A stretch of DNA of 64,000 bases, taken from positions 1,583 to 65,582 of the forward strand of contig JAHFDP010000012.1 in assembly GCA_023248955.1 (NCBI GenBank), in the 5' to 3' direction. Below the pieces are notes generated by a model. It did not search any database. It was given only the letters and a program-made list of their open reading frames with translations, and was not told the origin of the DNA. Numbering within the stretch: the stretch's first letter is position 1; every line of letters begins with the position of its first letter. A program made the translations under genes and the position numbers. This document shows positions 135-17,629 of this stretch, piece after piece. Origin of the DNA: Deltaproteobacteria bacterium (lineage in GTDB: Bacteria; Myxococcota; Myxococcia; Myxococcales; JAHFDP01).

Positions 135-941
135 TTAGGCTCGCACGTTGGTGGATTCGAAAATGCGGTCGGCGTTTTTTTCCACGAACCCGTCGTAGAG
201 TTTTTCCGTCGAGGGATCGGTGTAGCGCTTCGCAAATTCGTAATAGCAACTCGGAATGACGCGGCGCGTGTCGGCGAAGGCGACCTCCACGCGGCTCGCC
301 ACCGTCGACGACTGTTCGAGCAACACCGCCGCGGATCCCTTCACTTCGCCGCCGGAGGTGTTGAGCGCAAAGCCCTGCGTCTTGAGCCAGGCATTGAGAT
401 CGGCGACTTGCGAAAATGTCTTCAAGGCATTGAACGACACCGTGAAGTGATTCACGCGCACGCCGAATGCCACGAGCCACGCACCGTATTCGGACTCGGC
501 GAGGAGCCGTTCGTACGTCGCGTAATCGATGGAGCGCCACGTCGGCAGCCGCGCGAAGAAATCGAACGCGCCGACGGTGGAACCATCAACTTCGGAAACG
601 AGCCCACGTACCGTCTCCTGGAACGCGGACGAAAACGCGCGCGTCCGTAATTGCGAAACGAAGAGCCGCGGATAGTTTCCGCTCGGATGGCTAAACGAAA
701 TCGCGTCGAGCTTCTTGTCCTCGAAAGCGTAGCGACCGCTCTCGCGGTAGCCGAGTGCGACGAAGGGCGCAGCCAGCGCCTCCATCTGAATGGGCGCCAG
801 ATCGAACGTACGCAGTGCGACGTGATCGTTGACCACACGTTCACCGCGCGCTTCGAAAAGCGAGCGAATGCGCTTCGCGTCGGGCGTGGTCATTGAATAA
901 TCGGACCAGAAGTATTCGAACACTTCGTCGAGCGTTTTCAC
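135..941 (-). CDS. DUF1338 family protein, probable 2-oxoadipate dioxygenase/decarboxylase (HglS-like)
   Basis: [15 protein letters not shown] and CYYEFA motifs (His/His/Glu metal ligands); LLEQSST and DRIFEST are typical of DUF1338. Confidence 0.85.
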
Positions 942-1561
942 ATTTCCTCCAGGAGCACCGCGCGCACCGGCGACGCATCGGCACCTTCTAGACGAAGCGG
1001 CAAGGCTACGAGCGTATAGCGGCCCGGCGGAACGTGCGCGAGCACAAGCCCCTCGAGAACGGACAAACCATGGCGCCGAACGGCGTTGTGGCTCTCGAGA
1101 ATCTTGTCTTCGAAGAGATCGATCGATGGCGTATCGATGCCAACCAGGAGTGATCGGTTGTCATACAAGTGATCAATCAACGCGGCGGAGAGCGCGGCGA
1201 AGTCAGTGGTGAAGCGATCGGGATCCGGAAAGGTTCCCGTCTTGAAGAGCACGCGTGGTGCTGCAATAGACGCCATTAGATCATGCGGATGAATTCGCGC
1301 GCCACGCGTCGCCGCGACTTCAATCACCTGACACGGACCGAGATAGGGCGTAAGCGACCGCGCGCCGATGTCCGCACCGGACCGGTCGTAGTGCTTTGGC
1401 GCGTCGGCATGCGCACCCAGATGCAACGTCGTTCGAATTGCGCCGAGGTTGACGCTCGCGCCGTCCGCCATCCTCCACGTTTCTTCGAGCGCGAACGCGA
1501 CGTCGCCAGGCCAGACGCCGAGGCGCGGAGAAACGGCGGGAGAAATATCGATGATGCGCAA
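938..1561 (-). CDS. kynB: Kynurenine formamidase (cyclase family)
   Basis: VWPGD, HLGAHADAP (HxGxHxDxP), GIDTPSID, LEGL and DASPVRA motifs; 4-bp overlap with the downstream gene. Confidence 0.88.
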   Translation of the reverse strand: MRIIDISPAVSPRLGVWPGDVAFALEETWRMADGASVNLGAIRTTLHLGAHADAPKHYDRSGADIGARSLTPYLGPCQVIEVAATRGARIHPHDLMASIAAPRVLFKTGTFPDPDRFTTDFAALSAALIDHLYDNRSLLVGIDTPSIDLFEDKILESHNAVRRHGLSVLEGLVLAHVPPGRYTLVALPLRLEGADASPVRAVLLEEM

Positions 1562-1564
1562 ACG

Positions 1565-2983
1565 CTACTCCGCCGCCGCGATCACTTTGAATTCCACCGC
1601 AATCGGCGTGGGCAGGGCCTTGATGGCGACGGTCGTTCGCGTGGCACCGACACCGGCGAAGTGCTCGCCATAGACGCGATTGAACGTGGCGAAATCGCGA
1701 TCCATGTCGATCAAGTAGACCGTCACGTCGATCACGCGCGCCAACGACGAGCCCGACGCTTCGAGAATCGTCTTCACGTTTTCGATGACCGCGCGCGTCT
1801 GTAATGCAACGTCATACTTTTGTGATCGCCCTTCGGAATCGTGCACTGGACCGCCGGGAATCGAATCCGTTTTCGGATCACGTGGACCGATTCCCGAGAG
1901 GAAAAGCAGACCGCCGACGCGACGCGCGTGCGGATAGGCGCCGACTGGACGCGGCGCGGCGGCGACGGAAATGGCGTCGCTCACGACCGTGGATCCCCGG
2001 GTCAAGCCCGGGGATGACGAATGCGTGACTGAGGACGACGAATGAGTGACCGGGGAGGACGAATGAGTGGCTGCACCTGACGAATTGCCCGTCAGCACGC
2101 CGCGATCGCCTGCGAACACTTCCGCATCCGCCTCATCGAACTCCTGGGCCGCAGCTGCGCGATCAGTCGGTGTGAGCCCAACCACCGCCGCACCCGTTCC
2201 CCAAATCGGTTGGTACGCAAACGCGCGACCTTCGTAACGGTTGTGCTGCCCCATCAGTGCCGCGAGCCACCAGATCGCTTTCAGCTTCTGATCACCGAAC
2301 GCTTGCGCCGAAAATTCACGCGCCAGCTGCGACACATCCTCGAGCCGTCCTTCCCCCAAAAGCTCCACAAGCTTTCGATTCCACTCGTCGTCTTTGCGCG
2401 ACGACACGTGATCCTTCGCTGGATCGATCTCCTCGGTGAAGAGCCGATTCGAAAGTGCAGTCACACTGACTGCAATGGCGCGCTTTCCACTCGATCGCAG
2501 CGCGTCAGACGCTGCCTTGCCAAGCACCAGCGTCTCCGCACGATCCGCGTACATGTTGCACGAGACGATGCAGGCCGGCAGCCGGTTGTCGGGATTGAGC
2601 AACTTGAGAGCGACCACGGATCCGGTGTCGATGGGAAACCCGCGGTACGCCACGGTACGCGTGTGCAAGCCGCGCGCGCGCGCCGCCTTTGCGTAGGCCT
2701 CCGCGTAGTCGGCGTCGATCCGAAAACGGTACGGAATCTCTCCGAGCTCGTGCCACTCCGGATCAACGTGCGTCCACTCCGGCGCGGGATCCGCTTGCAC
2801 TTGGTGGCCGATCACGCTGAGCCACTGCGTGCTGTAAATCAGCAGCAGATCCGCTTCGGCCGCCTCGATCTCCTCGCGCACTTTTTCAAAGGCATCGCGA
2901 ATCGTTTGCCACGCTGGCGATCGCTCCGGCGCCAGCAACGGATGCGGCATACCTGGAACGATATATCCGGCCACGATCGTCAT
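1565..2983 (-). CDS. 2-aminophenol 1,6-dioxygenase alpha subunit fused to a RidA-family 2-aminomuconate deaminase
   Basis: Start MTIVAGYIVPGMPHP at 2983 (ATGA overlap with the beta-subunit stop); LIYSTQWL and HVDPEW resemble AmnA/CnbCa. C-terminal ~135 aa (PVGAYPHARRVGGLLFLSGIGPR...RTTVAIKALPTPIAVEFK) is RidA/YjgF type. Confidence 0.85.
   Translation of the reverse strand: MTIVAGYIVPGMPHPLLAPERSPAWQTIRDAFEKVREEIEAAEADLLLIYSTQWLSVIGHQVQADPAPEWTHVDPEWHELGEIPYRFRIDADYAEAYAKAARARGLHTRTVAYRGFPIDTGSVVALKLLNPDNRLPACIVSCNMYADRAETLVLGKAASDALRSSGKRAIAVSVTALSNRLFTEEIDPAKDHVSSRKDDEWNRKLVELLGEGRLEDVSQLAREFSAQAFGDQKLKAIWWLAALMGQHNRYEGRAFAYQPIWGTGAAVVGLTPTDRAAAAQEFDEADAEVFAGDRGVLTGNSSGAATHSSSPVTHSSSSVTHSSSPGLTRGSTVVSDAISVAAAPRPVGAYPHARRVGGLLFLSGIGPRDPKTDSIPGGPVHDSEGRSQKYDVALQTRAVIENVKTILEASGSSLARVIDVTVYLIDMDRDFATFNRVYGEHFAGVGATRTTVAIKALPTPIAVEFKVIAAAE
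1988..2020. repeat. REP-like palindrome inside the coding linker
   Basis: cgtggatccccgggtcaagcccggggatgacga is identical to 61220-61252; encodes SSPGLTRGST in frame. Confidence 0.85.
2016..2078. repeat. Three imperfect 21-bp tandem repeats (THSSS-containing peptide units)
   Basis: Units beginning gacgaatg at 2016, 2037 and 2058. Confidence 0.75.
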
Positions 2984-3876
2984 GGCGCGCTCCGCTTCGG
3001 ATCCCATTCGACAACGGCATTGCCAGTCCCGATCACGGTTCCGTACGCATGAACCTGTGCCGGATAGGTGGGCATGCCGAGCGCGGACAAAAGCCACGTC
3101 AGCGCACCCGACTTCGCTTCGCTCTCGGTCTGATCAAGGAAATCGGGCAGCTCGTCCATCAGCTCGCGCGTCTTGCCATGGCGCATCAGTTCCAAAACGC
3201 GCATGTCCCAGAGGTATTGCCCGTGGTGATAGATGTGTTCCTTCGACATGTCCTCGGGCGGATCTGGCTCGACGGTGAAGTGGCGATGCGACAGCGAGCA
3301 GGACGCGAGGAGCACCGCGCGACGGCCGCTCTTCTCGACCGCGCGTCGTGTGGCCTCGCCGAGCAATGCCATCTGTTCGTTGCCCACTTCGTTGCTGAAA
3401 TAAAAATAGGCGCCGTTCGAGGAGAGTCCCACGATCGGTTTGTTCCACGAGGGGTTGGCTAGATGGCACGCAGTGAGCGTTCCGTAGTCCACGCGAAAAT
3501 GGGGGTTGCGCATCATCTTCGCGGTGAGGCCGGCGTGGCGCGCTTCGTCGTGAATCGCTTCGGCCAGCGCCACGTCGACGTCGAGCTTGTAGTCGTAGCG
3601 AAAGAGGTTCGGAAAAATCGGATCGACCGAGCGGCTCTCGAAATGCGGCACGCCGAGAATGTGGTGGCCGACGTGCGTGCGCCAATGCGGTGAATGGACG
3701 ATGAGGACATCGAATTCTTTCGTGGCGAGGCTTTGGCGGAGTCGCTCGTAGCCCCAGCGCAAAACGTCCCAGCCGCCCTCGGAGCGCGGTTCGTTTTGTG
3801 GCGGATTTTCTCCGTACACGAGATGCGGCGGATGCGGCGCGAGCGCGCCGAGAACAATTGAACCGCCTCCGCTCAC
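2980..3876 (-). CDS. amnB: 2-aminophenol 1,6-dioxygenase beta (catalytic) subunit
   Basis: APHPPHLVYGENPPQNEPRSEGGW, HSPHW, SVDPIFPNLFRY, FRVDYGT, LSHRHF and YGTVIGTGNAV closely match the AmnB/CnbCb sequence as I recall it. Confidence 0.93.
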   Translation of the reverse strand: MSGGGSIVLGALAPHPPHLVYGENPPQNEPRSEGGWDVLRWGYERLRQSLATKEFDVLIVHSPHWRTHVGHHILGVPHFESRSVDPIFPNLFRYDYKLDVDVALAEAIHDEARHAGLTAKMMRNPHFRVDYGTLTACHLANPSWNKPIVGLSSNGAYFYFSNEVGNEQMALLGEATRRAVEKSGRRAVLLASCSLSHRHFTVEPDPPEDMSKEHIYHHGQYLWDMRVLELMRHGKTRELMDELPDFLDQTESEAKSGALTWLLSALGMPTYPAQVHAYGTVIGTGNAVVEWDPKRSAP

Positions 3877-3902
3877 GTATTGCCTCCGATCACCTTTGTA
3901 TT

Positions 3903-4130
3903 CACAGAGGTTGTGAAGAAATCCTCACAACCTCTGTGTTTTGAAGGGTCGGGCCGCCGCCCGCCCCTCTGCGCCGAGTGAATCGGCGCATGTACGGCGC
4001 TCAATGATAGCGCCGTCGGCCCACGTGGTTGCGCTGGAAGCGCTCGGTCGGACCCCGGGCTCACCCCACCCGCCGCCACGGCTTTCGCCGCGTCGCTGTG
4101 AGCGAAGGATGAACAATTCACAGGCTCACA
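3903..4130. mobile_element. Putative MITE-like structured insertion between amnC and amnB
   Basis: Ends gaggttgtgaa (3907-3917) and ttcacaggctc (4117-4127) form a 9/11 inverted repeat; perfect 14-bp hairpin 3903-3916/3925-3938; further hairpins at 3970-3990 and 3994-4016. Confidence 0.5.
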
Positions 4131-5565
4131 CCTTCACGCAAACATTTTTCGATTCACTAAAAAATTCGAGCGAATGCACTCCGCCTTCGCGGCCGACTCC
4201 ACTGTCTTTCACGCCGCCAAAGGGCACGCGCAGATCCCGAAGCAGCCAGGTGTTCACCCACACGGTTCCGGTTTCCAACGCCGCGGCGACACGATGCGCG
4301 CGCGAAAGATCGCGCGTCCAGAGCGACGCCGAGAGTCCGTAGCGAACGCCGTTGGCAATCTCGAGCGCTTCGGTTTCGCCTTCGAACGGATGGACTGTCG
4401 CCACCGGACCGAAAATCTCCTGCGTGGCCGTGCGGCTCTTCGTTGAAAGTCCGGCGATGATCGTTGGCTCGAGAAACGCGCCACGATCAAACGGCGGCGC
4501 GAGCGAAGGACGCTTACCACCACAAAGAATCGTCCCGCCTTCGGACTTCGCGAGCGTCAAGTAACCCTCGACTTTGTCACGATGCGCCGCTGAAACCAGT
4601 GCGCCCAGCGTCGTCTCCGGGGAGCGCGGATCGCCAACACGCATGGCGCGCACGCGAACGACGAGCGCTTCCACGAAGCGATCGTAAATCGATCGATCGA
4701 TCAAGATTCTCGATCCACAGAGACAAATCTGGCCCTGATTCAGAAAAGCCGCGCGCGCCGCACCTTCCACCGCCGCGTCGAAATCGCAATCCGCAAAAAT
4801 GAGCGTGGCGTTCTTCCCGCCGAGCTCGAGCGAGAGCTTCTTGAACAACGGTGCCGCGGCGTGCGCTACCCGCGCGCCGGTAGCCGTGCCGCCGGTGAAT
4901 GAAACCGCCGCGACGTCGCGATGCTCGATGAGCGCCTGACCAGCCTCGGCGCCGAATCCATGAACGAGGTTGAACACCCCAGCAGGCGCCCCGACCTCTT
5001 TGAAAATCTCCGCCAACACGGACGCCGTGAGCGGCGTAAGCTCGCTGGGCTTGGCCACCACGGCATTGCCCATCACCAGCGCTGGCGCGGCTTTCCACGA
5101 CAAAAGATAGAGTGGCAAATTCCATGGCGTAATGAGCGCAACAACGCCAAGCGGTCGCCGCAGTGTGTAGTTGAGCGCGCCGTCCATCTCGTGCGCGGCG
5201 GTGGACGTGTGGCGCGCGGCGCCGGCGAAGAAACGGAAGTTGGCCACGGCACGCGGAATGTCGAGCGTGGCCGCGAGCTTCACGGGCTTGCCAGTGTCGA
5301 GCGATTCCAGCTGGGCGAGTTCGTCGGCACGCGCGGCGATTCGGGAGGCAACGGCGTCGCAGAGATCGGCGCGTTCGGCGACGGTTGTGCGCGCCCACGA
5401 AGCGGAAGCTTTGCGCGCCGCGGCGACGGCGTGATCAACATCCGCCGCGTTCGAACGTGGAATCTTGGCGATGCACTCGCCCGTCGCCGGCGCGATGTCG
5501 TCGAGGTAAACGCCCGACGCGGGTGGAACGAAGGCGTTGCTAATGAAGTTCGCCTTCGACGTCAT
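4126..5565 (-). CDS. amnC: 2-aminomuconic semialdehyde dehydrogenase (ALDH8/HMSD type)
   Basis: ITPWNLPLYLLSWK, SFTGGT, LELGGKN, NQGQICLCGSR, EIFGPV and WLLRDLRVPFGG; start taken at MTSKANF. Confidence 0.9.
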   Translation of the reverse strand: MTSKANFISNAFVPPASGVYLDDIAPATGECIAKIPRSNAADVDHAVAAARKASASWARTTVAERADLCDAVASRIAARADELAQLESLDTGKPVKLAATLDIPRAVANFRFFAGAARHTSTAAHEMDGALNYTLRRPLGVVALITPWNLPLYLLSWKAAPALVMGNAVVAKPSELTPLTASVLAEIFKEVGAPAGVFNLVHGFGAEAGQALIEHRDVAAVSFTGGTATGARVAHAAAPLFKKLSLELGGKNATLIFADCDFDAAVEGAARAAFLNQGQICLCGSRILIDRSIYDRFVEALVVRVRAMRVGDPRSPETTLGALVSAAHRDKVEGYLTLAKSEGGTILCGGKRPSLAPPFDRGAFLEPTIIAGLSTKSRTATQEIFGPVATVHPFEGETEALEIANGVRYGLSASLWTRDLSRAHRVAAALETGTVWVNTWLLRDLRVPFGGVKDSGVGREGGVHSLEFFSESKNVCVKV

Positions 5566-5611
5566 GGGCGGGCTCCCATCGGGGTGCACATAACCTGGAC
5601 TCACTTTCGGT

Positions 5612-5687
5612 CCCCCCAACCTAGCCCTCCCCCGCAAAGGGGGGAGGGGATACTTCAGGAGGGGACACTTCAGGAGGGGCCGCTTCA
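5612..5687. repeat. REP-like C/G-rich palindrome plus 3 x 15-bp tandem repeat forming the 3' end of the asparaginase-like gene
   Basis: ccctcccccgcaaaggggggaggg hairpin; ggagggg-NNN-cttca units at 5643, 5658 and 5673 (PPEVS/PEAA peptide repeats). Confidence 0.65.
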
Positions 5688-6766
5688 GGGTAGGGGGAAA
5701 TCGTTTTATTCCACTGAATATATCGGTCCCGATCTGGATCCCATTCGTCCCAGGTCGGAATCGTCTCCAACTTTCCCAACAGCACCTCCGGCACCAGCCC
5801 CGGCACGATGAACGCCTTCTGCCGATGCAGCGGATAGGGATTGCGCAGATCGAATCCGAGCACGCCCAGCACCGACCGGGCGATGGTCCAGCTGGCGCGC
5901 GCGTTCCAGCCGTGCGCGATCTTGATCACCACGCCAAGCCCCTCGGGAAAATCGGGATGCACGACGGAGAGCCCGAGCAACCCGTCCGCGCCCTCTTTCG
6001 CGAGGACGCGGCCTTCGCACGCTTTGAGAATCGTGCTGTCGAGACGGTTGAAGCCGCCCACAAGATCGGGATGGCGCATCATCGCTTCCCAGATCCAGTC
6101 GTCGTCGCGGTGCGCCGAGAGCGACGCGAAGAGCACCGCCAGCTCCGAAACCGTGTTCGAGGCCGTCGGCAATCCACAACCATCGCGCGCGATCCTAAGC
6201 GGAGTCCAATCCGCGCCCAACTGACCCCGTATTACATCCAATAGCGATTGAAATACACGGTGACTCGGCAACGTATAGCCCGCGCGCGACCAGCCAAGCA
6301 GCCGGCAGCCGAGCAGAATCGCGGCATGCTCGCCCGAGCAGCAGTGGTACCAGCGCCGCGGGCGCCGCACCTGCCTACCAAATTGCACCAGCGGAACGTC
6401 GAGCGGCGTCTGCATGAGCCCGCGCTCCGACTCGGCGAGCAGCGACTGTGCCGCGGCCACATGTTCGACGTCGCCGTTATGGCTCGAACAAGCGATAGCC
6501 TTCTGCCGCCAATCGGTGACCGGCGCCAGTGCCTCCGCAAACACCTTCATCATAAGCGGCTTCATCATGCTGCGGCCGTAGCAGAGAACGTTTCCGCCGA
6601 AGGAGTGAATGAGCTTGCCGCCGTTGGCCCAGGCCACCGCGCCGTGAACCGTGGTCTCCGAAATATCGTTGCGCCGGTAGTCGACGAGCGGCTCCCACTC
6701 GACGTCGCGTCCAGTGGGAATTCCCGGCGCGCGGACGCCGAGCGGGCTTGCCGGATACAGACTCAT
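5621..6766 (-). CDS. Asparaginase II (Rhizobium etli-type, class 3) family hydrolase
   Basis: RSMMKP (RSxxK), SSHNG, CCSGEH (family motif NCSGKH), DGCGLP, AKEGADG. Confidence 0.85.
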   Translation of the reverse strand: MSLYPASPLGVRAPGIPTGRDVEWEPLVDYRRNDISETTVHGAVAWANGGKLIHSFGGNVLCYGRSMMKPLMMKVFAEALAPVTDWRQKAIACSSHNGDVEHVAAAQSLLAESERGLMQTPLDVPLVQFGRQVRRPRRWYHCCSGEHAAILLGCRLLGWSRAGYTLPSHRVFQSLLDVIRGQLGADWTPLRIARDGCGLPTASNTVSELAVLFASLSAHRDDDWIWEAMMRHPDLVGGFNRLDSTILKACEGRVLAKEGADGLLGLSVVHPDFPEGLGVVIKIAHGWNARASWTIARSVLGVLGFDLRNPYPLHRQKAFIVPGLVPEVLLGKLETIPTWDEWDPDRDRYIQWNKTISPYPEAAPPEVSPPEVSPPPFAGEG

Positions 6767-7983
6767 AACGCCGTCCCGAGCCGCGGCACCACGCGTTCGG
6801 TGAATGCCGTCATGTTGCGAATCACGCGCGCGTTGTCGTGGTTGAAAAAATCGAACCAGAGCATCAAGCGATCGTCGGGATGAAAACGCGCTCGAAGTTG
6901 CGCCGCGATTTCGTCAGCGTCACCAATCACCGCGTTGTCGGCGGCCTCGTCGACTTTTTTCGGATCGAGCGTTCCCTCGAGTGCGGTCCAATAAGCCGAA
7001 AGCGCGGCGCGCGCTTCCACGCGAGCAGCCGCGCGACGCGCCTCGACCGAAAGATCATGTTCTTCGTTGAGGAACACCAGCACCGTGCGCGGCATGTTGC
7101 TGCGTCGCCACGGGCCGCCGGAGGGATGATAAGTGCGCGTCAGCCGTCGATGCGTGTCCTCGATGATCTCGGGCTTGGTGATGGAGAGATTGAAAATCCC
7201 CACCGGACCAATCGCCTGCACTTCTTCTTGAAGCCGCGGATCGTGCGAACCCAGCATCGGGACAACCAGTTCGCGTCGAAAATCTTGCGGAATGATTTTC
7301 AATTTTTCGAACGACCAGCGGCGCGGCACTTCGATCGCCGCGCTGCTCGAGCCAGCGGCTTCTTGCACGCGCGCCCAATCGGCGTCGCTGCGAAAATCGG
7401 CGCGCGACAATTTCGTCGGACGCACGTTTTCGCTCGACAGCGTGTCGCCACGGACGAGCCGCAAGAAAACTTCCGCGGCCTCGGCGAAAATTTTTCCTTT
7501 GAGGGCTGGCCAAGCGGCTTCTTCCACGGCGCTGCGCGGAACGATACCCGAAGCGCGGTTGATGAAATCGAAGCGTCCCGCCGCGATGCCGACGTGAATG
7601 CGCCGTCGCTCGACCGGATCGAGTCCGTGCAACGCCGTGAAGGCTGCCACACGTTCCGCTGCCGCGACCGGACCACCGTTGCAGAGAATGTTCATCACCG
7701 CTGAGCCGGTTTCGATACGGCGCGTGCGACGAAACACCTGATGCGAGAGCTGCAAGAAATCAACGTTGAGACCGACCTCACCCTGCCAGCTGGGAATCAC
7801 CGGATGCGCGTGCGACTTCTGCACTTCGCTGGAAAGGTGCGACTCGGCAATCCAGGCCACGCCGTAACCGAGCGCGTCGGCCGCTTCGACCTGCGCGAAG
7901 AAGTTGCGAAACATCTCCGCTTCGCTCGGCAGGTAACCGGCGACCGGCGTCTGGCTGATGGAGAAAAAGACGTTGAAGTTCAC
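6763..7983 (-). CDS. Luciferase-like (LLM class) flavin-dependent monooxygenase
   Basis: QVEAADALGYGVAWIAESH, TRRIETGSAV, AAAERVA and FTERVVP are typical of LLM TIM barrels; 4-bp overlap with the asparaginase-like gene. Confidence 0.82.
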   Translation of the reverse strand: MNFNVFFSISQTPVAGYLPSEAEMFRNFFAQVEAADALGYGVAWIAESHLSSEVQKSHAHPVIPSWQGEVGLNVDFLQLSHQVFRRTRRIETGSAVMNILCNGGPVAAAERVAAFTALHGLDPVERRRIHVGIAAGRFDFINRASGIVPRSAVEEAAWPALKGKIFAEAAEVFLRLVRGDTLSSENVRPTKLSRADFRSDADWARVQEAAGSSSAAIEVPRRWSFEKLKIIPQDFRRELVVPMLGSHDPRLQEEVQAIGPVGIFNLSITKPEIIEDTHRRLTRTYHPSGGPWRRSNMPRTVLVFLNEEHDLSVEARRAAARVEARAALSAYWTALEGTLDPKKVDEAADNAVIGDADEIAAQLRARFHPDDRLMLWFDFFNHDNARVIRNMTAFTERVVPRLGTAL

Positions 7984-7993
7984 GTATTACATC

Positions 7994-8785
7994 CTATATA
8001 CTTTGTAATCTTCCGCCGTCGACCGCCAGGCTCTGCCCGCGAATGAACGACGCCGCCGGCGAAACCAAGAACGCGATAGCCGCTGCGATCTCTTCGGGTC
8101 GCGCCAGTCGTGCTTCCGGAACCGCCGCGATCCATCCCGCTTCGATCTCCGCGATCGATCGACCCGTGCGCTTGGCCGTAAATTCGCCGAGCTCCGTGAG
8201 CCGCTCGGTCGCCGTGTAACCGGGCAAAATGTTGTTGATGGTCACGCCCGGAGGCAGCTCGCGCGCCAGCGTCTTCGACCAACCCGCCATGGCGGCACGC
8301 ACCGTGTTGCCGACTCCGACACCAGCGATCGGCTCGCGCATCGAGGTGGAAAGTACATTCACGATACGCCCGAAACCGGCGGCGCGCATGCCCGGAACGG
8401 TTGCGCGCACGAGCAGATGCGCGGAGAGGAGCACGCCGCCAAAGCCCTTCTGCAAATCAGCTTCGGTGACGTCGAGTAGACTCTTCGGCGCTGGACCACC
8501 GTTGTTGTTGACGAGCACGTGAACGGGGCCGTGATCGCGCACCAGGGCGTCCACCGCGCTCTGCAACGCGGTGCGATCATCGAGATCGATCGCCAAGTAG
8601 CGCGCATCGCTCGCACCGGCGACGCGCAACTGCGGCAACAATTTTTCGAGCGCATCGCGGCGCCGCGCGAGCACCGTCACCTGCGCGCCAAGCGAAGCAA
8701 TGGCAAGTGCAGCCGCTCGTCCGATACCCGCGCTCGCACCAGTCACCAGTGCGTGTCGCGATTTCAGTTGGAGATCGAGACCCAT
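7994..8785 (-). CDS. SDR family oxidoreductase (atypical active site)
   Basis: VTGASAGIG, LVNNNGGP, GNTVR in place of YxxxK, NNILPG, LAVDGG; start at MGLDLQL. Confidence 0.85.
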   Translation of the reverse strand: MGLDLQLKSRHALVTGASAGIGRAAALAIASLGAQVTVLARRRDALEKLLPQLRVAGASDARYLAIDLDDRTALQSAVDALVRDHGPVHVLVNNNGGPAPKSLLDVTEADLQKGFGGVLLSAHLLVRATVPGMRAAGFGRIVNVLSTSMREPIAGVGVGNTVRAAMAGWSKTLARELPPGVTINNILPGYTATERLTELGEFTAKRTGRSIAEIEAGWIAAVPEARLARPEEIAAAIAFLVSPAASFIRGQSLAVDGGRLQSI

Positions 8786-8825
8786 GGCGCTCGTGAATAA
8801 CTCAGGCGGCGCCTCTTGGCGAGCG

Positions 8826-8844
8826 TCCGGCGGCACGCGCCGGA
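8826..8844 (-). promoter_or_regulatory. SECIS-like hairpin for the second UGA
   Basis: TCCGGCG-CGTGC-CGCCGGA starts 11 nt downstream of the UGA; same CGUG loop start as the first hairpin. Confidence 0.65.
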
Positions 8845-8846
8845 AG

Positions 8847-9071
8847 TCAGACGGTTCAAGTCTTTCCGTCCCAACCGATCGTGACCTGCCCATTGCGCAC
8901 GATGACTGGCGCACACCGCTCGCCCCCGTTGAGCTTCTTCATCGTCGCGAACGCGACGCGATCGCGATGCACGTCGAAGTAGCGAATCGTCGCCGATTTT
9001 CCGAGCGCCTCACGGGCGCGTGTCGTGTGCGGTCAAGTATCCGTTCCATAGATCAAAATTTCGTCGGCCAT
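8847..9071 (-). CDS. Glutaredoxin-like selenoprotein with two Sec residues (UXX-star type)
   Basis: Manual translation MADEILIYGTDT-U-PHTTRAREALGKSATIRYFDVHRDRVAFATMKKLNGGERCAPVIVRNGQVTIGWDGKT-U-TV*; GGAG RBS upstream; TGA at 9035-9033 and 8858-8856. Confidence 0.88.
9005..9019 (-). promoter_or_regulatory. SECIS-like hairpin for the first UGA
   Basis: GCGCC-CGTGA-GGCGC starts 13 nt downstream of the UGA; GU in the loop. Confidence 0.6.
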
Positions 9072-9792
9072 GGACGACTCCTAGCGAATTCGGAACCGCA
9101 ATGAACCTACCCAGCCCGTGCAGGCAGTCGCAAGCCTTTGCGTGATGGACCTCGCGCGCCCGTGTCCACTCTTCGCGCGCCGCTTGCCACAACTTCACCG
9201 CACCGCGAACGCTCGGTCCGTCGCCCGCACGAAATTCCAAACCGGCTTCGTCGCCTGCCGTCCAAGCGACGCGCGCAATCGCGGGACCGTCGATCCACTG
9301 TTTTCGCGGGAACGGCGCGAGCTCCAACCGATCGCCCACCCGTCCATTCGCGCCCGCAAGCAGCGCGCCGCTGATGCCCACATCGAGGAGCCGTGCGATT
9401 TTCGCTGGACGATCGCCGCACCGAATCCTCACCAGCTGATTGGTGGCGATGCGCCGATGGCGACGACCGGCGGTTCCCTCCGGCAAGCTCCAATGCTCGA
9501 GAAAATACGTCGCCGAAAAAGTGAGCCACGTCCCGTTCGTCGACTTCCGCTCTTTGGCGAGCGCGTTTCCGCGCAAGATGGTCCGCTGCTCCGTGCTACG
9601 GCAGGCGATCTCCAAAATGACCGGAGCGCCCTTCGCGACACTCATTGTTGGGTCGGGAAAAAAGAGCAGGGCGCGCTGATCCTCCAATAGGAAATGCCGC
9701 AAAATCTGAGCTGGCGAATCGAATTGGTAACGCAACAGCGTTACGCCGCGCGGTGAGGTTTTTTCCGTGGCCAGTGCGCGTGAAGCGGACAT
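9010..9792 (-). CDS. PilZ-domain protein
   Basis: RRHRR (RxxxR) and DVGISG (DxSxxG-like) motifs; ARVAW...GLEF; start uncertain. Confidence 0.65.
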   Translation of the reverse strand: MSASRALATEKTSPRGVTLLRYQFDSPAQILRHFLLEDQRALLFFPDPTMSVAKGAPVILEIACRSTEQRTILRGNALAKERKSTNGTWLTFSATYFLEHWSLPEGTAGRRHRRIATNQLVRIRCGDRPAKIARLLDVGISGALLAGANGRVGDRLELAPFPRKQWIDGPAIARVAWTAGDEAGLEFRAGDGPSVRGAVKLWQAAREEWTRAREVHHAKACDCLHGLGRFIAVPNSLGVVHGRRNFDLWNGYLTAHDTRP

Positions 9793-9939
9793 TGTTACCG
9801 GATCTCCCGCCACACATGACGTTGTGCGGCACCGAGATCAGCAACTTGCAAACCTCACGCCAGGCCGCTTCGCGCGTACCGTGCGCTACGTATGCGTCAA
9901 AATGATGATTGCCTGAAAAAAATGTTTTAACGCAACCGG

Positions 9940-17529: not shown

Positions 17530-17629
17530 GGTAGCGCGTCCGGTGCTGGTGCCCGGCTCGGTCTTCAAAACCGATGGCACGTTCTTCAAAAGCGCGTTCG
17601 GGCGGTTCGATTCCGCTGCGCTACCGCCA
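17530..17629 (+). tRNA. selC: tRNA-Sec (anticodon TCA)
   Basis: 8-bp acceptor GGTAGCGC/GCGCTACC + G-CCA; D-loop TGGT; anticodon arm TCGGT-CT-TCA-AA-ACCGA (TCA at 17565-17567); long variable arm; T arm GGCGG-TTCGATT-CCGCT. Confidence 0.93.

Follow-up and report, generated by a model that had tools for sequence, protein, structure and literature searches.

Operon layout and gene identities

We analysed a stretch of 64,000 nucleotides (hereafter the window) from contig JAHFDP010000012.1 of a Deltaproteobacteria bacterium (assembly GCA_023248955.1, order Myxococcales). On its minus strand, positions 135 to 8785 form one tightly packed operon, with an SDR (short-chain dehydrogenase/reductase) gene as its first member and a DUF1338/HGLS gene as its last. 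The SDR belongs to a clade that lacks the catalytic tyrosine and whose genes lie together with those of 2-aminomuconate-6-semialdehyde dehydrogenase (AMSDH) and RidA-type deaminases in several phyla. We somewhat favour a role for this protein as an NAD(P)H-dependent C=C ('ene') reductase that would convert 2-oxohex-3-enedioate to 2-oxoadipate and thereby replace the decarboxylase branch of the pathway. The genes of the operon, from the first to the last, are as follows.

7994..8785, minus strand: SDR without the catalytic tyrosine, 263 aa (Pfam matches, TGASAGIG motif, Ser146, GNTVR at the YxxxK position)
6763..7983, minus strand: luciferase-like monooxygenase-fold protein (LLM), 406 aa (Pfam Bac_luciferase, 35.9 bits, cut-off 27.9)
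5621..6766, minus strand: Asparaginase_II homolog (class 3, Rhizobium etli type), 381 aa (Pfam PF06089, 172 bits)
4126..5637, minus strand: probable AMSDH, an AmnC/AMSDH-like aldehyde dehydrogenase (ALDH; PDB matches)
3873..4121, minus strand: open reading frame (ORF) of 82 aa with no Pfam or NCBIfam family
2980..3876, minus strand: 2-aminophenol 1,6-dioxygenase beta (catalytic, LigB-type) subunit (PDB 3VSG_B, E 3e-121; 8IHG_A, E 4e-119)
1565..3097, minus strand: fusion of the 2-aminophenol 1,6-dioxygenase alpha subunit with a RidA domain (PDB matches)
938..1561, minus strand: kynurenine formamidase (KynB, cyclase family; PDB 4COG, E 3e-50)
135..941, minus strand: short DUF1338/HglS-family protein, 268 aa (Pfam HGLS, PF07063, 103.8 bits, cut-off 25)

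Neighbouring genes are separated by 3 to 10 bp or overlap, several pairs by 4 bp, and the gap between the SDR and LLM genes is 10 bp. The top seven PDB matches of the ALDH are all AMSDH, ranging from E 6e-155 (7BZV, the best) to E 8e-148, and its nearest NCBIfam equivalog, TIGR03216 for hydroxymuconic semialdehyde dehydrogenase, gave 615 bits, below the cut-off of 693. The two LigB-type subunits are homologous to solved enzymes, as expected for a 2-aminophenol 1,6-dioxygenase (AmnAB/CnbC). Residues 40-308 of the protein encoded at 1565-3097 match PDB 7TXY_A (E 3e-60), and because its homologs align from about residue 40, the true start of the gene is probably near 2980. Its RidA domain (residues 377-507) has many RidA matches, the best being the 2-aminomuconate deaminase 6IZH (E 1.5e-25), and scores 92 bits with TIGR00004, below the cut-off of 106.25. 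The fusion of alpha subunit and RidA domain is retained in two metagenome loci (L028 and L031 in our numbering); the fusion may not be universal, as tblastn gives a shorter match to this protein in several phylum loci. KynB reaches 201 bits with TIGR03035, below the cut-off of 223.

Some positions in this layout are variable. A PIN-domain gene occupies the place of the 82-aa ORF in L028, and a TPR protein lies between SDR and LLM in other loci. Just beyond the left edge of the window, an ORF that lies downstream of the HglS gene (contig C40, about 1391-1710, minus strand) resembles pterin-4a-carbinolamine dehydratase as judged by eye from its translation.

Start, fold and active site of the reductase

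The ORF of the reductase extends from 7994 to 8914 on the minus strand and matches Pfam adh_short with 126.3 bits (cut-off 26.6) and adh_short_C2 with 138.4 bits. Its N-terminal extension overlaps an upstream selenoprotein gene, whose frame makes the SDR ORF look longer than it is. We therefore read the gene as 7994-8785, because the homologs begin at the ATG at 8785. With Pfam scores above cut-off and a TGxxxGxG-type cofactor motif (TGASAGIG), the protein falls into the classical SDR superfamily, and Ser146 of the active site is kept. In its active-site stretch, NVLSTSMREPIAGVGVGNTVRAAMAGWSK, the residues G159-N160-T161-V162-R163 occupy the YxxxK position, so that in the catalytic tetrad Asn-Ser-Tyr-Lys, Tyr is replaced by Gly159 (Ser in most relatives) and Lys by Arg163.

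We compared 102 SDR rows, consisting of 101 locus sequences (including L018, the window's own copy) and the window sequence. Arg was found at the Lys position in 102/102 rows and Tyr at the Tyr position in 0/102; the latter position carries Ser in 100/102 rows and Gly in two, both of which are the window SDR. In an alignment of 25 sequences, Gly at this position is also seen in several of the closest database homologs, and N160 and R163 are invariant. The Tyr-less motif is a trait of the clade, not a sequence error. The preliminary description, which had placed an SDR lacking YxxxK (GNTVR) at 7994-8785, agrees with the Pfam scores, the alignments and the starts of the homologs.

R41 is likewise invariant in the SDR alignment and sits after strand beta2 in the sequence LARR. 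An Arg after strand beta2 is a sign of NADPH use in SDRs, and R41 suggests that the window SDR uses NADPH as its cofactor.

The selenoprotein gene directly upstream of the SDR (8847-9071, minus strand) encodes a small glutaredoxin-like protein and is missed by ORF callers that use table 11. In-frame TGA codons occur twice in it, at the first Cys position of a CxxC-like motif and three codons before the stop (U-T-V-stop), and it matches NCBIfam NF041114, 'UXX-star selenoprotein family 1', with 75 bits (cut-off 72). A tRNA-Sec gene is present in the window at 17530-17629 (plus strand). No SECIS element is claimed, as the hairpin after the first TGA is no stabler than shuffled sequence (z = 0.28). 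The next ORF, of 267 aa at 9010-9813 (minus strand), matches no Pfam or NCBIfam family.

Gene neighbourhoods of the SDR clade

An SDR ortholog was not found in 60 genomes of the same order, where the best identity was 44%, and the genomic context was therefore drawn from other phyla and from metagenomes. Eighty metagenome loci were fetched by similarity to the SDR. An AMSDH ortholog, defined here by at least 45% identity to the window AMSDH, is present in 42 of these 80 loci and lies at most 137 bp from the SDR in 20 of the 42; among the loci with at least 3 kb on both flanks, it is present in 22/33. A deaminase-type RidA was detected in 20/80 loci and LLM in 13/80. Note that these neighbour counts rest on tblastn, ORF calling having given antisense ORFs in high-GC loci (no SDR was called in 21). 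When the neighbours were clustered and representatives scanned with Pfam, the SDR was accompanied by 3-HAO in 14 loci, an ACMSD-like amidohydrolase in 14, kynureninase (KYNU) in 12, a KMO-like flavoprotein in 10 and TDO in 10. A protein scan of genome contigs gave at least 17 SDR loci, 10 of them useful.

Three architectures recur in these loci. One is that of the window, SDR-LLM-asparaginase-AMSDH-dioxygenase-RidA-KynB. Another is SDR-AMSDH-RidA, which occurs as a bare trio in Luteibacter and Dyella. The third comprises full kynurenine operons in Bacteroidota, for example TDO-SDR-AMSDH-RidA-HAAO-ACMSD-KYNU-KMO. SDR, AMSDH and RidA are thus conserved together with a variable order, as SDR-ALDH-RidA, RidA-ALDH-SDR or ALDH-RidA-...-SDR, and the co-localisation of the SDR clade with amnC and RidA that the preliminary description had proposed as a check is found across phyla.

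In a quick tree, the SDRs with the motif SNT-x-R form a clade of 90 rows with 96% SH-aLRT support. The window SDR lies in a 13-row subclade (99% support) that includes all seven rows of the LLM architecture (the window is one of these); in the remaining six, the available sequence shows no pathway gene, for some because flank is lacking. We refer to the SDRs linked to the kynurenine pathway as the SNxxR clade, a grouping defined in this analysis and not a published family. The window SDR carries its [SG]-N-x-x-R motif and is co-localised with AMSDH and RidA.

Further genes accompany particular architectures. A caffeoyl-CoA-type O-methyltransferase gene (Methyltransf_3) ends KYNU-KMO-RidA-AMSDH-SDR-(HAAO)-ACMSD operons in seven loci (L068, L072, L078, L080, L085, L093 and L097), and several of the metagenome loci with this gene come from marine or seawater assemblies. 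In four loci of the LLM architecture (L040, L055, L059 and L077), the gene directly upstream of the SDR carries a Formyl_trans_N domain and encodes about 240 aa.

Co-occurrence with AMSDH and absence of the decarboxylase branch

We searched an even sample of 301 Bacteroidota genomes for SDR, AMSDH, HAAO, DmpH/DmpE and PF07063, with thresholds set at clear gaps in identity (at least 47% for SDR and at least 55% for AMSDH). SDR and AMSDH occur together in 47/301 genomes, SDR only in 10/301, AMSDH only in 1/301 and neither in 243/301. All 48 genomes with AMSDH also have HAAO, and 47 of the 48 have the SDR. By comparison, the SDR was found in only 3 of the 23 genomes that have HAAO without AMSDH, that is, the upper pathway only, as for NAD synthesis. 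The remaining seven SDR-bearing genomes lack both HAAO and AMSDH. DmpH/DmpE-like genes were found in 4/301 genomes and in none of the 47 with both SDR and AMSDH. The sole AMSDH genome without SDR (G172) carries two DmpH/DmpE-like genes, and another genome without SDR (G114) has one on the contig that carries HAAO, at a distance of about 1.4 kb from it. The SDR thus tracks AMSDH and not the upper pathway, which places it with the lower branch, and its distribution is almost complementary to that of the decarboxylase genes. The expectation in the preliminary description that the SDR clade would occur without decarboxylase branch genes is borne out by the 0/47 count.

ACMSD was abandoned as a marker in this sample. 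The first query found it in 10/301 genomes, a second and commoner ACMSD type being only about 26% identical, and it was replaced by AMSDH together with HAAO. The idea that the SDR substitutes for a missing formamidase in the Bacteroidota clusters was also rejected; the SDR retains intact motifs for NAD(P) binding, and in the window it occurs alongside KynB.

The decarboxylase branch is also missing from the genome that contains the window, within the limits of an assembly of 95.57% completeness. The FAA_hydrolase family (PF01557), to which 4-oxalocrotonate decarboxylase and 2-oxopent-4-enoate hydratase belong, has 0 matches in the whole genome, and so does the DmpG communication domain of the aldolase (PF07836). 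A tblastn search of the genome with the DmpH-like protein of a relative gave no significant match (best E 1.5). The statement that 4-oxalocrotonate decarboxylase, hydratase and aldolase are absent, made earlier from the window, therefore holds in genome-wide searches for a co-existing branch. A DmpH-like match is absent also from five SDR-bearing genomes of other groups, namely Luteibacter, Dyella, two Cyclobacteriaceae and one Krumholzibacteriia metagenome-assembled genome.

The DUF1338/HglS protein at the operon end

The last gene of the operon starts with a GTG that overlaps the stop of KynB (GTGA), and GGAGG lies upstream of it. The closest PDB match of its product is the uncharacterised protein 3LHO (E 6e-76), and NCBIfam holds no model for the DUF1338 protein at 135-941. 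When aligned with the plant hydroxyglutarate synthase 6W1K (E 3e-28), the motifs DH-x3-R, NH and E-F-A (in the stretch YEFAKR) coincide. The protein thus has the features that mark the HglS family, namely the Pfam score, a metal triad of His, His and Glu, and an Arg at the fourth position past the first His, the catalytic residues being mapped through this plant homolog and not through P. putida HglS itself.

In the available part of the HglS study (PMC7286885), the His-His-Glu triad and Arg74 are given as the conserved catalytic and specificity residues; HglS is reported to be active only on 2-oxoadipate among the 2-oxo acids tested, a property tied to Arg74, and the E. coli and plant homologs are reported to catalyse the same reaction. 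An HglS-like gene at 135-941, as first described, is consistent with both the Pfam score of 103.8 bits and the 6W1K alignment. The further suggestion that HglS was recruited to tryptophan catabolism is supported in this genome by its position in the operon and by the retention of the residues for 2-oxoadipate specificity; the link is confined to this genome. An FAD-oxidase_C protein encoded elsewhere in the genome (217 bits) is a candidate D-2-hydroxyglutarate oxidase.

Proposed reaction and rival explanations

We propose the SDR as the reductase because it is the sole NAD(P)H-dependent candidate in an operon that would make 2-oxohex-3-enedioate and that ends with an enzyme of a 2-oxoadipate family. 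In the proposed pathway, 2-aminophenol 1,6-dioxygenase would open the ring, AMSDH would oxidise the resulting semialdehyde to 2-aminomuconate, and the RidA domain would deaminate this to 2-oxohex-3-enedioate (4-oxalocrotonate; tautomer 2-hydroxymuconate). The SDR would then deliver a hydride to C4 of the alpha,beta-unsaturated 2-oxo acid, with protonation at C3, to yield 2-oxoadipate, and the invariant Asn160 and Arg163 may hold the enolate or a carboxylate. The HglS-type Fe(II) oxygenase of this genome would convert 2-oxoadipate to D-2-hydroxyglutarate, which the FAD-linked oxidase encoded elsewhere could take to 2-oxoglutarate. Conjugate reduction is the simplest chemistry for the SDR, and loss of the catalytic Tyr is consistent with an enzyme that must spare the 2-oxo group. 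The strength of these claims differs. Gene order, family assignments, the altered motif, co-localisation, phyletic distribution and the lack of the other branch come from computation, while the substrate, product and cofactor of the SDR, its place before or after RidA and the origin of the HglS substrate are proposals. That the SDR works in the lower branch of the pathway is highly probable, and 2-oxoadipate is its likely product whichever of SDR and RidA acts before the other.

Several observations weigh against the proposed reaction. A sister clade of Tyr-less SDRs (motif SNGLR or SSGLR; 37-38% identity) occurs in the window's own order, in three genomes of 5-9 Mb (G049, G005 and G012; loci L131-L133), where the SDR ends a seven-gene operon AMSDH-RidA-HAAO-ACMSD-KYNU-KMO-SDR. 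Beside this operon lies a divergently transcribed DmpH-like gene, whose best NCBIfam match is 2-oxo-3-hexenedioate decarboxylase (TIGR03218, 237 bits, below the cut-off of 350). Of the 135 loci examined, three carry such a gene, all of them in the sister clade, and its position shows that the SDR and a decarboxylase-like gene are not always exclusive. In the Bacteroidota sample, the counted genomes are related and the Fisher p-value overstates the association. Moreover, 10 of the 57 SDR-bearing genomes lack an AMSDH ortholog. Three of these (G064, G128 and G063) have no clear ortholog of AMSDH, ACMSD or the deaminase, and in G064 and G128 the SDR adjoins HAAO and/or kynureninase. In G280, the SDR lies beside HAAO, KYNU and KMO, and ACMSD is present without an AMSDH or deaminase ortholog. 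In a further genome, G177, HAAO adjoins an ALDH of 51% identity, with neither SDR nor a Dmp-like gene. The SDR itself reaches no NCBIfam equivalog cut-off, and in the PDB search its similarity to AerF and BacG (see below) is no higher than to ordinary ketoreductases. As for HglS, it was found in none of 10 related operon loci of the phylum (five with at least 3 kb beyond KynB), nor in L028, the sole metagenome operon that reaches past KynB. PF07063 is absent from 5/5 genomes searched among those of the phylum that share this operon type, and among the 47 Bacteroidota carriers of both SDR and AMSDH it occurs in only two and not nearby. HglS is thus not a general partner, and other carriers must dispose of the SDR product by another route. 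Apart from these exceptions, the reductive lower branch to 2-oxoadipate outlined in the preliminary description is supported by both computational checks that it proposed, on co-occurrence and on absence.

The order of the last two steps may be reversed, with the SDR reducing 2-aminomuconate and RidA hydrolysing the enamine or 2-iminoadipate to 2-oxoadipate and ammonia, or the product may be an unsaturated 2-amino acid. The preliminary description had allowed 2-aminomuconate as a substrate, human ASPDH is reported to reduce it with NAD(P)H (bioRxiv 10.64898/2026.06.05.730449), and hydrolysis of such a product would be canonical chemistry for the RidA family of imine/enamine deaminases; the three genes are moreover co-conserved without a fixed order. 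Against this, the best solved relative of the RidA domain, 6IZH, is a genuine 2-aminomuconate deaminase with 2-aminomuconate itself as the substrate, and the oxo acid forms anyway by spontaneous deamination, as described in the same preprint (bioRxiv 10.64898/2026.06.05.730449). The sequence gives nothing to separate the two orders, and on balance we consider the reversed order rather unlikely. The SDR may instead serve another step, either reducing 2-oxopent-4-enoate after decarboxylation or protecting the cell from quinone-imines that arise by autoxidation of 2-aminophenol, 3-hydroxykynurenine or 3-hydroxyanthranilate. This would suit the sister clade with its DmpH-like neighbour, the three genomes (G064, G128 and G280) that have the SDR beside KYNU, HAAO or KMO but no lower branch that can be recognised, and the seven SDR-bearing Bacteroidota genomes without HAAO and AMSDH. 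However, the SDR follows AMSDH (47/48) far better than HAAO alone (3/23), the bare SDR-AMSDH-RidA trio of Luteibacter and Dyella comes without an aminophenol-forming enzyme, and the present genome has no decarboxylase to form 2-oxopent-4-enoate. We consider a function at another step quite improbable.

We give very little credence to a bystander role for the SDR, as a common ketoreductase of the FabG kind or a relic without activity that happens to lie beside the operon, with HglS an unrelated enzyme of lysine catabolism. Source annotations do label many of the listed SDR homologs '3-oxoacyl-ACP reductase', and the best NCBIfam matches are generic SDR and FabG models; HglS was characterised in lysine catabolism (PMC7286885), and its adjacency is unique to this genome. 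Yet the best model, NF006212, scores 175 bits, below its cut-off of 339, and all FabG models are below theirs (NF009466, 146.8 bits versus 222; TIGR01830, 121.7 bits versus 297.75). The replacement of Tyr and Lys extends over the whole of a conserved clade in which the cofactor motifs are intact, and this speaks against decay. In addition, the co-localisation and the phyletic pattern span several phyla, and the start of the HglS gene overlaps the KynB stop.

A possible kynureninase-free upper route

TDO is encoded elsewhere in the genome and KynB in the operon, so that the two may make kynurenine. Kynureninase was not found in the genome (best score 21 bits versus a cut-off of 246), and genome-wide searches also gave no ortholog of HAAO, Amidohydro_2/ACMSD or KMO. 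The operon dioxygenase is nonetheless closely related to true 2-aminophenol dioxygenases. Judging by the gene content and by chemistry, the operon probably yields 2-aminophenol from kynurenine through LLM and the asparaginase-like hydrolase. Specifically, LLM would insert oxygen beside the aryl ketone in Baeyer-Villiger fashion to give the beta-aspartyl 2-aminophenyl ester, from which N4-(2-hydroxyphenyl)asparagine may arise by a shift, and the class-3 asparaginase homolog would hydrolyse the ester or anilide to L-aspartate and 2-aminophenol. The route would continue through AmnBA, AMSDH and RidA to 2-oxohex-3-enedioate, through SDR to 2-oxoadipate and through HglS to D-2-hydroxyglutarate. That the whole operon constitutes a route from tryptophan to 2-oxoglutarate without kynureninase is a tentative proposal, to which we assign a less than even chance.

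The sequence of LLM matches none in the PDB. Its AF2 model (pLDDT 82.7) has among its Foldseek matches RslO1 (7BIP, E 2e-13), luciferases, SsuD and the type II BVMO 4UWM, a fold search that does not tell the subfamily. The asparaginase homolog aligns with PDB 8CLY (E 2e-18) at SxxK, SHNG, DGC and K-x-GA-[DE]-G, with CSGKH changed to CSGEH. The LLM and asparaginase genes are always paired, and always between SDR and AMSDH (L028, L031, L055, L074, L077 and L139-L148). The operon type of the window occurs in 10 of 100 other genomes of the phylum searched, and TDO is adjacent in L047 and L049. A literature search on kynurenine, Baeyer-Villiger oxidation and 2-aminophenol gave no description of such a kynureninase-free route. 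If the route is correct, LLM and the asparaginase homolog would gain new functions, and the reduction step that has lacked a gene would be filled at once.

Significance of the proposed assignment

In textbooks, tryptophan catabolism ends with the conversion of 2-aminomuconate, or of the product of its deamination, to 2-oxoadipate, and to our knowledge this 2-oxoadipate-forming step went without a gene for decades. For animals, a preprint of 2026 assigns ASPDH, which is another enzyme and gives another product (bioRxiv 10.64898/2026.06.05.730449). This preprint is the sole paper on a '2-aminomuconate reductase' that we found, and our literature search gave no bacterial gene assigned to the 2-oxoadipate-forming reduction. 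Should the proposed reaction be correct, the SDR would close bacterial tryptophan catabolism to central metabolism, the '3-oxoacyl-ACP reductase' label of many homologs would be corrected, and metabolic models of marine and soil Bacteroidota and of other phyla would change. It would also represent a new SDR-fold reductase for 2-oxo-enoate diacids. The window adds to this an operon-encoded member of a 2-oxoadipate-specific enzyme family, HglS, directly after the pathway.

Comparison with known systems

The best PDB matches of the window SDR are three Burkholderia structural-genomics proteins, 5VA8, 5IDX and 5VPS (E 2e-41 to 4e-39), deposited only as 'Short-chain dehydrogenase/reductase SDR'. 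At the YxxxK position they carry S-N-G-A-R, which is the motif of the sister group (SNG/A-x-R) and not SNT-x-R. BacG/YwfH of Bacillus subtilis (PDB 3U49), which we take to be an SDR-fold NADPH-dependent C=C reductase, matches the window SDR with E 5e-28. A similar match (E 1.3e-30) was obtained for AerF of Microcystis aeruginosa (PDB 6JH7), described as an SDR that reduces a C=C bond (PMC13256417; PMC10143770). Both share fold and size with the window SDR and offer a precedent for the reduction by SDRs of a C=C bond in conjugation with a carbonyl, to which the window SDR is likened by sequence similarity. Their substrates are cyclohexenyl-pyruvate-type intermediates of secondary metabolism, whereas the proposed substrate here is a C6 dicarboxylic 2-oxo-enoate.

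Replacement of the catalytic Tyr has a parallel in the Mentha SDRs, where swapping the catalytic Tyr and Glu is reported to switch the enzymes between ketoreduction and ene reduction (PMC4988501). In isopiperitenone reductase of Mentha, as in the window SDR, the catalytic Tyr is replaced, and the Mentha enzyme carries out ene reduction (PMC4988501). It differs in being a plant enzyme with a Glu replacement and a monoterpene substrate, the window clade having Ser or Gly together with Asn and Arg.

Human ASPDH fills the same gap as that proposed for the SDR, being NAD(P)H-dependent and acting directly after AMSDH in tryptophan catabolism. As described in the available part of the preprint, it differs in its unrelated fold, in releasing no ammonia and in its product, L-2-aminohex-3-enedioate; ASPDH is presented there as the metazoan solution, fungi using a deaminase (bioRxiv 10.64898/2026.06.05.730449). 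The DUF1338 protein of the window belongs to the same Pfam family as HglS of P. putida, the plant enzyme 6W1K and E. coli YdcJ, and shares with them the positions of H-x3-R, His and Glu; it differs from the characterised HglS in its short form of 268 aa and in its place in a tryptophan operon instead of a lysine context. Finally, the decarboxylase branch (DmpH/AmnE/NbaG decarboxylase, hydratase and aldolase) starts downstream of AMSDH and the deaminase from the same intermediate, 2-oxohex-3-enedioate. That branch yields pyruvate and acetaldehyde, whereas the proposed SDR branch would yield 2-oxoadipate.

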